Positions 28,695 through 40,047 of a stretch of DNA of 64,000 nt are shown one piece after another. Under the pieces are notes generated by a model that worked only from the letters and a program-made list of their open reading frames with translations, made no database searches and was not told the DNA's origin. Source of the stretch: Eledone cirrhosa (lineage: Eukaryota); assembly GCA_964016885.1 (NCBI GenBank), contig OZ024740.1, positions 305,722,001-305,786,000 of the forward strand, written 5' to 3'. Made by a program: the position numbers and the translations under genes. Numbering within the stretch: position 1 is the stretch's first letter; each line of letters begins with the position of its first letter.

Positions 28695-28908
28695 GGCGAC
28701 TTACGTAGGAAATCGTATTATCGTGAGCTCCGCAAAGGTTTGTTGTTTTCAGTTGTTTCAAATTGCCATTTATGGAAAAATTTTGTTGTTAAGTGTTTAT
28801 AAGGTCACATATATTGCTTTCGGAAAAGGACACTCAAAAAGATTTGGGCCTTGAGCCCAAAATTTAAACTTTTATAATTATCAAACAAAAAATTTATTTG
28901 AAAAAAAC

Positions 28909-30546
28909 ATGGACGACTCACAGCTACACCAAGCTGACAGCCTTCCTCACAAACTAACACTTCACACCAACACCACCATTGTAAATATTACTACGTTTGC
29001 CAACACTAAAAATATAAGCAGTAACAATAATTTAAATTTGTCTCATGCAGACATTCATTTCCCGCCATTACCAAAAACTGCAGGTGTTGAAGCCGCCACC
29101 CTCACCACCACCACAGCGACAACAGAAACAAAAGAAAAAAATAAATTATTATCTCGTGACGTCGAAATGGATTCACCCAGAATCGACTCTTCCACACCGA
29201 ACACCACTGACGCCACCACCACCACCACCACCACCACAACTAAAACTAAAAATAACAATAACCAAAATAACGATAACAACAACATCAACAACAACAATGA
29301 GAATAAGAAAACCACCCTAACTTTTGCCAGAGTAGCAAAAAAGTGCGAAGCAATCCAGGTAACTCAGGAGGAATTAGAAGAAGCCAAAAGAATGGTAAAG
29401 AAAGATGGGTACAGGGTCAGCCTCACCTTCCCATCTAATAAAATGGAGCATCGGAGGATTAACATAAAATCGCACCGAGTGGAACGAGCATCTGAGTCCC
29501 AAATCCAAAAAGCTTTGGGACATGTGTGGGCAAAAAAACCCCACATCAGACGTGGGCAGAAATATGGAATCGTGGACGTGTTCTTTGGAACACCACAGGA
29601 GGCCAGAGAGCACTCCATGGCCCCATTAAGAAATGACGACTTCACACTCGTCCCAAGCTATTGTGTCCAGAGACTCGTGAAGATCAGGGTGACCCACGTT
29701 CCACCGGCCATCGAAATTCCCTGGCTAATGGCTGCCGTCCTCGCCGGCATCGAGGCCAACACCAAAATAATTGAAATATCAAAAGAAAAGCAGGAGAACT
29801 GGTCCGGATCTGGGATGGAGATCCTGATCCAAGCGAACCAAAAAAAGCATTGAGGAAATCCCAGAGGTTATAGACCTCACTGACGGCAGCCACCTCACCG
29901 TAATCGTCGAGGGTAGAAGGCCTAGGTGTGTCGTTTGTGGTGAAGGAACCCACCTAAAGGCTTTCTGCCCTCAGGCTAAAAGGTTGAGGCCACCTCTCTT
30001 ACCCACCCCAGTGACTCAACCATCAACACCACCAGCAGCAGAAATGGCAGCAACAACTGTAGCAGCAACAACCACAGCAACAGTAGAAAAACAAACACCA
30101 CCACCACCCAACGCACCAGAACTAGCACCAGCGCCTACACCATCCACCACGCCACAACCAAAACCAACGCCTGTGGAGGATTTTCCACTCCCCGACCTAT
30201 CGCAACTGGAGACAGATTGTGACGACGAGGAGTGGGAAACGGTATCAGGAAAAAAGAAAAAAAGAAAAAGAAGCCAAAAAAGAAAAAAATCCTCTTCCTT
30301 CCCCCTCCAAAAATCAAAATACAGAAGGAAACAAATAAACTATCAAACAAAAAAGTTAGGACAGCTATGCCACCATCCACACCAGCATCACCAACCCCAT
30401 CACCACAAACACTAACACCATCACCATTAACCCCAACACCACCATCGCCAACACCACAGAAGTCACCAAAAAGCGAAACAGAAACAAACCCACAACAAAC
30501 GCAAACAAAAAAAACAACCAAAACGATACACACTGCACAGCATTAA
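28909..30546 (+). pseudogene. LINE ORF1 (gag-like), frameshifted
   Basis: A +1 frameshift in the A-run at about 29845 restores ...IEEIPEVIDLTDGSHLTVIVEGRRPRCVVCGEGTHLKAFC (CX2CX4HX4C). It continues into a Pro/Thr-rich region and EEWETVSGKKKKRK, with a further shift near 30300. Confidence 0.85.
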
Positions 30547-30858
30547 ATTTGAACAACAACCAACTATTACACTACATCCAACACAACACCAGCATCACAG
30601 AAAAAGACTACACAACACCCCAAAAGTTCACACCACTTCCATACATACAAATCACTCGCATCACACAGAAAACGTACACGACACTAAAACAAAAATTCCC
30701 CAAAGACATCGGAGACTTCCGACAAGCACTCTCCAGGAGGATTTATAAGGACATCCTTCCGGAGGAGGCCACAAGCAGTGAAAAGGAATGAGAAACCATC
30801 CTTCCTCTAAGAGAAGTAAGGTAAGTGGTCTTTCCCATCTTTTCCACTCCATTTCAAC

Positions 30859-33451
30859 ATGACCTCACTCAGAATAGGCAGCATAAATGCGCGTGGCTTG
30901 GGGTCGTCATGGAAGCAGGGCCACCTGCTCAACGACCTCAGCTCACTAAACATAGATGTAGTGGCCATCAGCGAGGCCAGAATCTCCGAAGCACGGGCCT
31001 TCGCACCGATCTTCGGCGGCTACGATGTGTACGCATCTCCCAGCCGTCCTGGATCGGGGGGAGGAGTTGCTGTGCTTTTTCGGAGAGGTTTGGATCTCGC
31101 CATACGGGCCATCTTCCTGGACCCAGAAGGTAAGTTGGTGGTGCTGGACGTGACCAACGGAGGCGGGCAAGCTTTCAGGCTAGTGGCCGTCTATGCCCAG
31201 ACAGGAGCAGGGCGGCCTGATTTCTTCCGGCGTCTGGATACCTTTCTTGGAACGTCCCGCTCTTTAGTGTTAGTGGGCGACTGGAACGAGATCTTAGATG
31301 CACGCTGGGACTGTGTGGGATTAGCGGATAGGGGAGTAGGGTGTAAGAGCCTCACCAACCTGCTCAGGCGTTTTGAACTGTCTGACAGGTACCGATTGGA
31401 TTTCCCGAATGTGCCAATGTGGACTTGGACAAACCGCATAGGGTCATCCAGATCATATCTAGATAGAGTATTTTGTAGGGAAATAGAGAGATCTAGCATA
31501 GGCTGTCCACAATTCAAGATAGTCAGCTATACGGACCACAAATTCGTGATCTGTGTGCTTGACTTAGATAGGCTTCATACACGAGGACCCGGCTACTGGA
31601 AGCTAAACGCGTTATTAACAGCGCGCAAGGCCTACAGAGACCGGATTAGCGAACTAGCTAAGCGGGCGTTGACGGGGGCCATCGTCAACAACAACTGGTG
31701 GTTTGCTCTGAAAAGAGCGATTAGAATAGAGTCCATTAGGTTTAGTAAAGCTTTAGCAATAGAGAAAAATAGAGCAGAGGGAGAACTAGTTAGAAAATTA
31801 GACGAGGCGCTTAGCAAAGGCATCGCAACCAACGTACTTGCGGCGAAATTGGCCCTTGACCAATTCTTCAATGCAAAGCACGAAGGCTGCGTTGTCAGAG
31901 CTAGGGTGCGTGCTCTCAATGGGCCTGAGTGGCGGAGGCGCGTCGTGACAACAAAGCCACGATCCGGTCTTTGGTTGACCACGACGGGCGCATGCTACTC
32001 GATCCCGGGCAAATGTGTGAAGCTTTTCAGCGACACTTCGCTCAGCTGTTCGGGGGCAGCGGCGGGCCGTGTCGAGGGATGGACTTTAGTGTCTACCTCG
32101 ACGGACTGCCGCGGCTCTCGGCCACTGAGGCGGAGTGTTGCGAAAAGCCGATAACAGCCGCTGAAGTACGGGAGGCAATGACTGGCTGCACAAGAGGTAA
32201 AAGGCCTGGTTTGGATGGTCTGCCCTATGAACTTTACAGTCAGATGCCAGACTTGTTCGGAGGCCTTTTGGCGGACGTCTACTGCAATTGGCAACAGAAC
32301 GGGAAAATTCGCAGCTCTGTGGGCCGAGGAGCGGTGGCGCTGCTGAGAAAGAATCCGAACAAGGGGGATAACATAGATAATTTCAGGCCCATAACTCTGC
32401 TAAACACAGAGTTCAAGATTTTGGCCAAGGTGCTAGCAAAGAGGTTGGTGCTTGTCGTTGGTGGTCTGGTGGAAGAGGCCCAGACATGCGCCATTCCCGA
32501 CAGATCCATCCACGACAATCTCCACCTCATGCGATACATCGTAGAGAGGGTAGCTAGGGAACCTGGCACGGATGGCTGGGCATACCGTGGCGGATGATGC
32601 GCAGACACGCGCTCAGGCTACGACATCTCCACCTCTTCCTCGACGGTGATCAGGTGTGGTTGCCGTTTGCTAGACACGTCTTTCCCCAGCTCGTCTCCTT
32701 GACGGAGCTGCAGTCCTGGGTCAAGCGAAGACCGAGAGCGAGCGCTTGGAGACTGGAATGTCTTCAGGCGCTCACAGCCCTCGACCAATCGGGCAATGTG
32801 ATCGGTGGAAACTCCACCTTGGCGTTCTATAGAGGATTAGTGGAGGGGAAGAGCGACGATGTACTTGGAGAAACTCTAGGCGTCGACGAAAATCAACTAA
32901 CCAATCTCTTCGGAAGGACTTTCGGGCCGGGGCCTATGGACAATTTCCAGAAATCCCTGGCCTGGCAGTGCTACCGAGGAGCTTTGCCAGTTCGGGATAA
33001 ACTCTACAGGCATGGAGGTGCCGTCAGCCGGGCATGTCCGAGATACGCACAGGGCGACGAAACCGTCCTGCACGCACTCGTCCAGTGTCCGAGCATTGCT
33101 GACTTGTGGGTTTATGTCGAACACCTGCTGTTACGTGTAGGACGGATCCAGCTATCAGCTGAGTCCATCGTGAGGATTTCCCCGCCCTCTTCCTTTAGCC
33201 GGGAAGGGCAGGCAGTTTTTATCTGTCTGGTGGCCATGGCGAAAGAGATAGTATGGTGGACACGTTTGAAAGGGCTGAAGACGAACACTTACCTCTTCGG
33301 TGATGCCCTGATTAACTTTTTCAAATTTCATTTGAAAAGGAAAATCAGGGTAGAGAGGGAAGTGCTCTCTTCCCAGCATTTTGTTGAAAGATGGGTGAGA
33401 GAAGCAAGTCTGGCCCGAGTGAATGGGCCTACTCTGAGTATGTGTCTGTAA
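30859..33451 (+). pseudogene. LINE ORF2 (APE endonuclease, truncated RT, C-terminal zinc-finger region)
   Basis: APE motifs SINARGL, GDWN, YLDR, TDH and YWKLN; frameshift at about 31920; RT start PGLDG...NFRPITLLNTEFKILAKVLAKRL...SIHDNL. The sequence then jumps at about 32580 to the C-terminal ALPVRDKL..CPRY...ETVLHALVQCP. Confidence 0.9.
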
Positions 33452-37758: not shown

Positions 37759-38192
<434 letters not shown>

Positions 38193-38616: not shown

Positions 38617-38844
38617 CAGTGGAGCGTCTGTGAGGAATAGAAAGAGAGGATTTGTTAGTAAAGAAGTACGAGTGAGGAAATAAAATTTACACTATACTTA
38701 CAAGTATTGAGTGCTCATTCAGTTAATGTTTGAATGTTTTAAGTACTATGGTATTTTAAGTACCCATTCTATTATATAAATATATATCTATATATATATA
38801 TATATATACATACATACAGATATATATATATATATATATATATG

Positions 38845-39345
38845 CATTTAAGTAACTGCCGTACTAAGAGTGAGAAATGAAATTTCGTTTCATTCTATTC
38901 CATTTATCGTTTTCGGTGCGCCCGGCCGACTAAACTCACTCGATATGCAAATTAGGCTGCTCAGCCGTTAATATGCATAAGGAAAGTATATACTTTCAGA
39001 CGTTCAACCATCTGGCAGGAAGGTATACGATGCTGACGATAGCTAATAAGCTTGAAACTAGTACATCGTTCTTGTGTCAGTGTTGAACAAAAAGGTGACG
39101 TGGTTGCCTAAACACTGTACGGCGTAATTCGGGCTGTTTGTTTGTTTACAAACAAACCGAGCATTATAATAAATGTTCGGTAAACCGATACGTGCATATA
39201 TATATGTGTGTGCATGTATGTATATATATACATACTACTGTACGTCTGTATACATATATGTATGTACGTATACATATATGCATACTTACATTTAAGTAAC
39301 TGCCGTACTAAGAGTGAGAAATGAAATTTCGTTTCATTCTATTCC

Positions 39346-39351
<6 letters not shown>
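38845..39351 (+). mobile_element. Element A: 444-bp unit with a 63-bp terminal direct repeat, hammerhead-bearing, in (TA)n (retrozyme or Penelope pLTR-like)
   Basis: 38845-38907 is identical to 39289-39351; internal hammerhead; (TA)n on both sides. Confidence 0.8.
39027..39069 (+). ncRNA. Minimal type I hammerhead ribozyme
   Basis: ACGATG-CTGACGA-T-AGCT-aata-AGCT-T-GAAA-CTAG-TA-CATCGT: 6-bp stem I, complete core, 4-bp stem II closed by a U.U mismatch, palindromic stem III (ACTAGT), GUA cleavage triplet. Confidence 0.85.
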
Positions 39352-39378
<27 letters not shown>

Positions 39379-39381
<3 letters not shown>

Positions 39382-39817
39382 GATATTAAATAAATGGAAA
39401 CTATATTTATAAAACCATATTTATTTCATTATATATATTTCAGGGATATCATATTAAAAATATGTTATGCCTTCTTCAGACAAAATACAATATAAACAGT
39501 CTTATAAATAGATAGATTCGACATACCTTTCAACTTCGACTTCTATTTGAAAAGTTGATTTTCAAATAGAAGTCGAAGTTGAAAGGTATGTCGAATCTAT
39601 CTATTTATAAGACTGTTTATATTGTATTTTGTCTGAAGAAGGCATAACATATTTTTAATATGATATACCTGAAATATATATAATGAAATAAATATGGTTT
39701 TATAAATATAGTTTCCATTTATTTAATATCGTAAATATACTCCAAATACTTGTTGAGTGCTTTTATATCAGATATAAATATTTACTCGTTGTTAACCCAA
39801 CAATTTAAATAAAACTT

Positions 39818-39820
<3 letters not shown>
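39379..39820 (+). mobile_element. Element B: fold-back element with 175-bp inverted arms, 5-nt spacer and a unique tail, in (TA)n
   Basis: 39379-39553 versus 39559-39733 shows one mismatch; tail runs 39734-39820. Confidence 0.9.
39625..39690 (+). ncRNA. Minimal type I hammerhead ribozyme (mirror copy on the minus strand at about 39422-39487)
   Basis: TATTTTGT-CTGAAGA-[AGGCATAACATATT...AATATGATATACCT]-GAAA-TATATA-TA-ATGAAATA: 8-bp stem I with two G.U pairs, 12 of 14 bp stem II, palindromic stem III, AUA triplet. Confidence 0.72.
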
Positions 39821-39850
<30 letters not shown>

Positions 39851-39852
<2 letters not shown>

Positions 39853-40047
39853 CGAAGGAATTGTGGTAAGGAACCAGATGGACCATAACGCACCAGAGTA
39901 CTAGGGTAGTAGAGTGGGTAATAGGAAAAAGTATGACCCCGACGGCAGAGCTCAAGCCGTTTCGACGGTTATTTCTGGACTACAGTAGTCCAGAAATAGC
40001 CGTCGAAACGGCTTGAGCTCTGCCGTCGGGGTCATACTTTTTCCTAT
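39851..40047 (-). mobile_element. Family C fold-back element (63-bp arms plus tail) in (TA)n
   Basis: 39921-39983 versus 39985-40047 inverted; same tail as the 52511 and 7334 copies. Confidence 0.9.

Follow-up and report, generated by a model that had tools for sequence, protein, structure and literature searches.

Non-LTR retrozymes have been described in coral, Mytilus and axolotl (Cervera and de la Pena 2020, PMC7229834; Li et al. 2026, 10.64898/2026.07.22.740005), and newt satellite 2 combines a hammerhead with cleavage as a dimer (PMC7229834). Penelope-like elements (PLEs) leave partial tandems, an inverted 5'-truncated copy and a tail that is often present at a single end, and they insert into (TA)n targets (PMC8557442, PMC3846280); the tail is the interval between two internal reverse-transcription start sites (PMC11167929). 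In the PLE that was studied in vitro, unprocessed RNA is the main template and the start sites are alike on both strands (PMC11167929). A 2020 study proposed that PLEs move animal retrozymes via circular RNA (PMC7229834), and the support for this link added in 2026 consists of co-occurrence and pseudo-LTR (pLTR) homology (10.64898/2026.07.22.740005). We found neither a report of a cephalopod retrozyme nor a description of tail/tail-less pairing in retrozymes in the literature (Repbase and Dfam lay outside this search), and hammerhead and retrozyme terms are absent from a supplement of PMC13282606.

The locus described here lies in a window of 64,000 nt from Eledone cirrhosa, by which we mean the whole stretch of DNA that was analysed. 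The copy at 38845..39351 (plus strand) comprises 1.14 units of a tandem non-coding element of 420-490 bp (family F1); it is 5'-truncated at unit position 1 and ends at the tailed 3' end. As the first-pass annotation had it, this is a non-coding island between two (TA)n tracts: a (TA)n-rich target tract lies on the left (38773..38843), the (TA)n target tract on the right (39349..39380) is common to this copy and the next insertion, and no ORF of ≥150 aa overlaps the element, the ends of which are not LTR-like. The hammerhead and an octamer are followed by a TA/CA-rich, self-complementary part of the unit (39190..39288, plus strand), which varies in length among copies and folds as a long hairpin. 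Downstream of it is a Penelope-type tail (39289..39351, plus strand; hairpin at ~39318-39339), reaching the family's main fixed 3' end (putative reverse-transcription start site 1), while 39289..39294 (plus strand) mark the family's second, tail-less fixed 3' end (putative start site 2).

An internal copy of the tail segment occupies unit positions 1-63 (38845..38907, plus strand). It is identical to 39289-39351 over 63 nt with a period of 444, exactly as had been annotated, and the repeat does not extend leftward. The annotation had also taken these 63 bp as a terminal redundancy; the repeat is exact, but it is specific to the window copy and corresponds to the Penelope tail rather than to a terminal repeat proper, because a PLE tail is the segment between two internal reverse-transcription start sites (PMC11167929). 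The 63-bp overlap reflects the point at which the window copy stopped. This copy holds one hammerhead only (Li et al. would class it as a monomer) and alone would therefore be unable to release a circle of unit length; the locus is probably an ordinary daughter copy and a dead end.

The type I hammerhead motif (39027..39069, plus strand) has a stem I of 6 bp (ACGATG/CATCGT), the core CTGACGA, GAAA and a GUA triplet, with predicted cleavage after A39063. Stem II consists of 4 bp above a basal U.U pair, and the palindromic stem III (ACTAGT) is predicted to need a dimer. A motif scan bore out the annotated hammerhead as complete, with its palindromic stem III and GUA site, and gave 0 matches in 30/30 locally shuffled windows. 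The Rfam hammerhead covariance models, which had been suggested as a check, gave no match at E values of up to 10, and Rfam returned only microRNA-like chance hairpins; the ribozyme call therefore rests on motif and covariation. Core and stems, whose decay among copies, together with a lack of cleavage, the first-pass annotation had named as evidence against its proposal, are conserved and covary. The 31-nt hammerhead core has 10,046 exact occurrences in the 3.0-Gb genome (control, 0). Across 15 recurrent hammerhead variants, picked from 102 seen in three related families (F1, F2 and F3), both partners change in 6 of 13 pairs and 95% of the alignment cells are paired, vs. 23-48% in slid controls; because the variants are related, the pair changes represent few events, not 33. 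The hammerhead thus appears to be under selection, preserved by compensatory change over ~40% divergence. Folding predictions for the circular monomer give stems I and II a probability of 0.6-1.0, and self-cleavage of the transcript is a prediction.

The perfect octamer that had been annotated, ATGCAAAT (38945..38952, plus strand), is there; however, the 64-kb window contains this 8-mer 9 times, counting both strands, so that its presence alone is at chance level. It lies within a block that is retained among families at ~59% identity (F1, F2, most of F3 and an old relic). The block is mutated in every unit of one F3 insertion, and a promoter role for the octamer is therefore only putative. 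Newt satellite 2 has an octamer-containing promoter. The relic (L415:516-669, minus strand) is an old, decayed relative of the unit that has kept the octamer block and lost the hammerhead core.

A genome search for copy start and end points and for tandem arrays, as proposed in the first pass, found fixed 3' ends, variable 5' ends and tandems. The F1 sample consisted of 143 loci after removal of 10 duplicates: 79 in genome order (taken from the first 100 core matches on contig 1), 31 reached via a 63-mer anchor, 30 best matches and 3 incidental loci. The 40 best copies share 97-100% identity over 351 nt, and F1 comprises several haplotype groups that differ by roughly 5-15%. Each unit has two fixed 3' ends, at positions ~63 and ~3 (~60 nt apart), mostly leading into (TA)n. 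Among the 121 segments of the 79 genome-order loci, the tail forms the end of 49 and the tail-less site that of 50, with 22 ending elsewhere; genome-wide, there are 2,426 exact tail-plus-(TA)4 ends. The 5' ends are spread over the whole unit, and an apparent pile-up at the second start site (22/223) was mostly an alignment artefact involving a private variant in the reference unit. Head-to-tail tandems reach 4.6 units in the genome-order loci and 6 or more in L131. An inverted arm is present in 30/79 genome-order loci, and the inverted F1 pairs from all sets (n = 62) include 41 that combine a tailed with a tail-less end, 3 of the same type and 18 with an unclassed end. When F1 and its sister families are pooled (two samples), tail/tail-less pairs outnumber same-type pairs by 75 to 3. 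Family members carry the PLE insertion signature: the 3' tail is optional, there are two fixed 3' ends, 5'-truncated arms occur in inverted orientation, and tandems are partial. We read the F1 copies as PLE-type insertions because their ends, inversions, tandems and (TA)n targets have all been described in PLEs (PMC8557442, PMC3846280, PMC11167929). Contigs of runs X1, X4 and X5 contain many variants in organism A, and 5 low-depth contigs from the same runs in organism B (3 at 90-95% identity, 2 at <90%) provide a hint only.

Family F2 (463-465 bp) was reached through its similar tail hairpin and is colinear with the F1 unit (local score 146 vs. a shuffled maximum of 40; ~59% identity). A pattern excluding F1 and F2 gave 5,466 matches (control, 8), and among the 100 listed, 97 represent a single core, that of a third family, F3, which is 95% alike to F2; the F2/F3 tail is 69 nt long. 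Inverted insertions accounted for 38 of 60 fresh tail-anchored F2/F3 loci, with 34 tail + tail-less pairs, 0 tail + tail pairs and 4 unclassed. One F3 insertion carries 18 identical whole units across both arms. Single inverted F3 insertions with 18 or more near-identical units of 467-468 bp are located at G000:C1:30831844-30840875 (L261) and C1:56387565-56398028 (L263, L264), and in these one end is tailed and the other tail-less. In 8 sister-family loci, 5' ends that seemed to lie at the cut site proved to be parsing artefacts. A putative fossil of RNA editing, first seen as a sense-strand excess of A>G over T>C in F3 (11 vs. 2; F1, 5 vs. 3; F2, 3 vs. 0), was rejected after it failed to replicate in an analysis set beforehand on 60 fresh loci (55 usable), which gave 2 A>G vs. 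3 T>C among unique variants and 8 vs. 4 when recurrent variants were included. One-unit variants of F2/F3 show more G>A than C>T on the sense strand (83 vs. 38); this difference is weak with whole units only (15 vs. 10) and unexplained.

Copy number, ends, inversions, tandems, read-through, homogeneity and covariation, all read from sequence, lead us to a retrozyme with PLE-type insertion: the window element is probably (at a rough probability of 0.7) an animal non-LTR retrozyme on which a PLE acts in trans, using a predicted circular RNA as template. The first-pass annotation had offered a retrozyme or a solo pLTR as candidates. The family data support the retrozyme, while the sequence upstream of the unit is never a shared ORF or 3' UTR, as a solo pLTR would have it. 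An ordinary solo pseudo-LTR would be a 3' fragment left by an autonomous PLE, with the ORF-bearing copies of that PLE unsampled, and the tail, inversion and (TA)n targeting would be typical of it; a genuine solo pLTR adjoins the element at 39373-39821. At the 223 5' ends, however, the unit is preceded by a further unit, an inverted arm or unrelated DNA, so that longer copies extend into further units, and the 61 non-family upstream flanks include 1 shared pair. PLE coding sequence lies ≤700 nt from 8/223 5' ends. At 3/223 (L058, L087 and L041), retrozyme arms abut 5'-truncated ORF fragments, which could be counted in favour of a solo pLTR, yet these fragments belong to three different PLE families; the junctions may represent template switches or chance adjacency. 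The search for copies abutting an RT plus GIY-YIG ORF, also suggested at the outset, was negative, in that none of 130 PLE-ORF-anchored loci (~11 families) has the unit as its own pLTR; the matches of an F1 + F2 profile to these loci are separate copies of the element. Because no copy sits downstream of a shared ORF, we do not regard F1 as a solo pLTR, an origin that we consider very unlikely. We give almost no weight to a dispersed satellite or SINE-like repeat that was spread by DNA-level recombination or a LINE and carries a vestigial hammerhead: tandem arrays with higher-order patterns and microsatellite-like DNA in the unit would suit such a repeat, but two fixed internal 3' ends, the lack of poly(A), strict tail/tail-less pairing and covarying ribozyme stems would be unexpected.

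PLEs with RT and GIY-YIG domains, hammerheads of their own, ~60-nt tails and (TA)n targets are abundant in the genome (Pfam confirmed both domains in 1/3 proteins tested, and the other two were assigned by inspection). No autonomous partner or driving PLE for the retrozyme was found among the ~11 PLE families in the 130 loci; it may be unsampled, because each partner search scored 150 of 10,000-57,000 candidates. In the window, the neighbouring palindrome at 39373-39821 has 181-nt arms with one hammerhead per arm (cores at 39479, minus strand, and 39633, plus strand) and resembles, at ~90%, the 3' end of a PLE family that is young and has open frames of 745 aa; it is a true inverted solo pLTR, the right arm of which has a longer tail. 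Three PLE families (L121-L139) apparently have hammerhead-like motifs in their 3' UTRs, with U3-A8 replacing C3-G8 and a palindromic ACCGGT stem III (by eye). Two more short inverted-repeat elements in (TA)n, at 39918-40046 and 37815-37940, are likely the ends of other retroelements, and the former matches repeats elsewhere in the genome. A broken LINE-like element with ORF1-like, endonuclease-like and RT-like frames (by inspection) is present at 28855-33451 (plus strand).

For the spread of the retrozyme, multi-unit loci would be transcribed and paired hammerheads (dimer-assisted) would excise unit-length RNA, with ligation giving a circle. A PLE RT-endonuclease would nick both strands of a (TA)n tract, and cDNA would begin at two sites that lie ~60 nt from each other and serve one strand each; a cDNA would go round the template between 0.1 and more than 10 times. 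Next, the pair of cDNAs would be joined together, yielding an inverted insertion, or one would join the target, as in the window copy (1.14 turns). The insertions would thus be fossils of two-primer rolling-circle reverse transcription, in which a PLE dimer, after nicking the two strands of a (TA)n target, would prime each strand at its own start site on a single circular ribozyme RNA and go round it up to 20 times; we advance this account tentatively and put it at somewhat less than an even chance. If true, it would account both for the spread of animal retrozymes and for the restriction of PLE tails to a single end in inverted insertions, and a family this young and abundant would lend itself to in vitro tests of it.

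Several observations bear on the nature of the template. A gap at the predicted cut site occurs in 3/217 passes. None of 30 tail-ended F1 arms stops at the cut (15 pass it), nor do any of 59 F2/F3 arms (48 pass it), and because cDNA arms never stop there, a cleaved linear monomer is not the template. Discordance at 23 diagnostic sites, with indel columns left out, is 5.6% within tandems vs. 45% between loci; the units within one insertion share a haplotype, which argues against template jumps between unrelated RNAs. In the 55 fresh loci, 11/15 insertion-private variants are found on both arms. Identical units together with private variants on both arms look like the expected residue of repeated copying of one circle, although assembly may have partly homogenised identical long arrays. 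Read-through around a circular or multimeric RNA of ~444 nt, which the first-pass annotation had deduced from the window copy, is upheld by the family data but not by that copy itself, and it is compatible with an uncleaved multimer as much as with a circle.

The same observations have to be weighed against a PLE-mobilised non-autonomous element whose template is a linear, uncleaved multi-unit transcript, with long arrays derived from long source arrays and later unequal crossing-over, and with a hammerhead that is dispensable for insertion. Hammerhead mutants of an Anolis PLE are unaffected in insertion in vitro (PMC11167929), and there are non-autonomous tandem PLEs that lack canonical hammerheads (MRC1, PMC8557442). 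A linear template would also suit the few tandems that switch haplotype away from the cut site (4/84 tandem pairs are >30% discordant) and the periodic variant patterns: L141 (G000:C1:19314800-19316800) shows perfect ABAB alternation of 422- and 420-bp units that differ in 15 columns, one arm of L263 has a period of 3, and L268 has partial patterns. These periodic arrays could reflect multimeric circles, or duplication or unequal crossing-over after insertion. In Xenopus, 8/9 retrozyme dimers are without cleavage in vitro (10.64898/2026.07.22.740005). Copying of a linear template with 5' truncation only shortens arrays, yet single insertions hold 18 or more identical units, with private variants on both arms, and a dispensable hammerhead sits poorly with its preservation by compensatory change; we regard a linear template as unlikely.

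Compared with metazoan non-LTR retrozymes (PMC7229834, 10.64898/2026.07.22.740005), the element read here as a retrozyme likewise consists of non-coding tandem units that each bear one type I hammerhead, occurs in thousands of copies from monomers to multimers, is low in GC and is accompanied by PLEs; a U.U pair at the foot of stem II has also been described for axolotl HHR_Amex2. The F1 unit (420-490 bp) exceeds the 170-400 nt given in PMC7229834 and falls within the 51-972 bp of 10.64898/2026.07.22.740005. Non-LTR retrozymes accumulate as unit-length RNA, both linear and circular, and F1 is predicted to do so. A parent pLTR is reported for 24/57 Xenopus retrozyme families (10.64898/2026.07.22.740005), whereas none was found here, and the tails, two fixed 3' ends and inverted arms found here have no counterpart in the accessible text of PMC7229834 and 10.64898/2026.07.22.740005. 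Newt satellite 2 (PMC7229834) likewise has a tandem unit and a type I hammerhead with a weak palindromic stem III; F1 differs in its dispersed PLE-type insertions, and the promoter parallel is only putative.

With endonuclease-bearing PLEs and their pLTRs, F1 has in common the optional 3' tail at one end, the inverted 5'-truncated arm, partial tandems, (TA)n targets, a hammerhead with palindromic stem III and two start sites that bound the tail (PMC8557442, PMC3846280, PMC11167929, PMC4209133). Unlike PLEs, it has no ORF, and the unit is the whole element. Its stem I, with 6 bp, and stem II, with 4 bp, are of the canonical type, whereas PLE pLTRs have the minimal type with a long stem II. Tails of ~60 nt in F1 and 69 nt in F2/F3 compare with 30-40 nt in described PLEs, and other PLE families of the same genome also have tails of ~60 nt. 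The non-autonomous PLEs of Chlamys, such as MRC1 (PMC8557442), are similarly multicopy, head-to-tail and PLE-moved; the MRC1 type shares 3' sequence with an autonomous partner and mostly lacks canonical hammerheads, whereas the F1 hammerhead is conserved and its partner was not found. To the proposed PLE-retrozyme link, F1 adds evidence from junctions, namely the tail and inverted-arm signature of PLEs on retrozyme copies. The near-strict pairing of tailed with tail-less ends constrains the mechanism of PLE integration, and the young sister family, with its insertions of 18 identical units, offers a clean substrate for a test of circular vs. linear templates.
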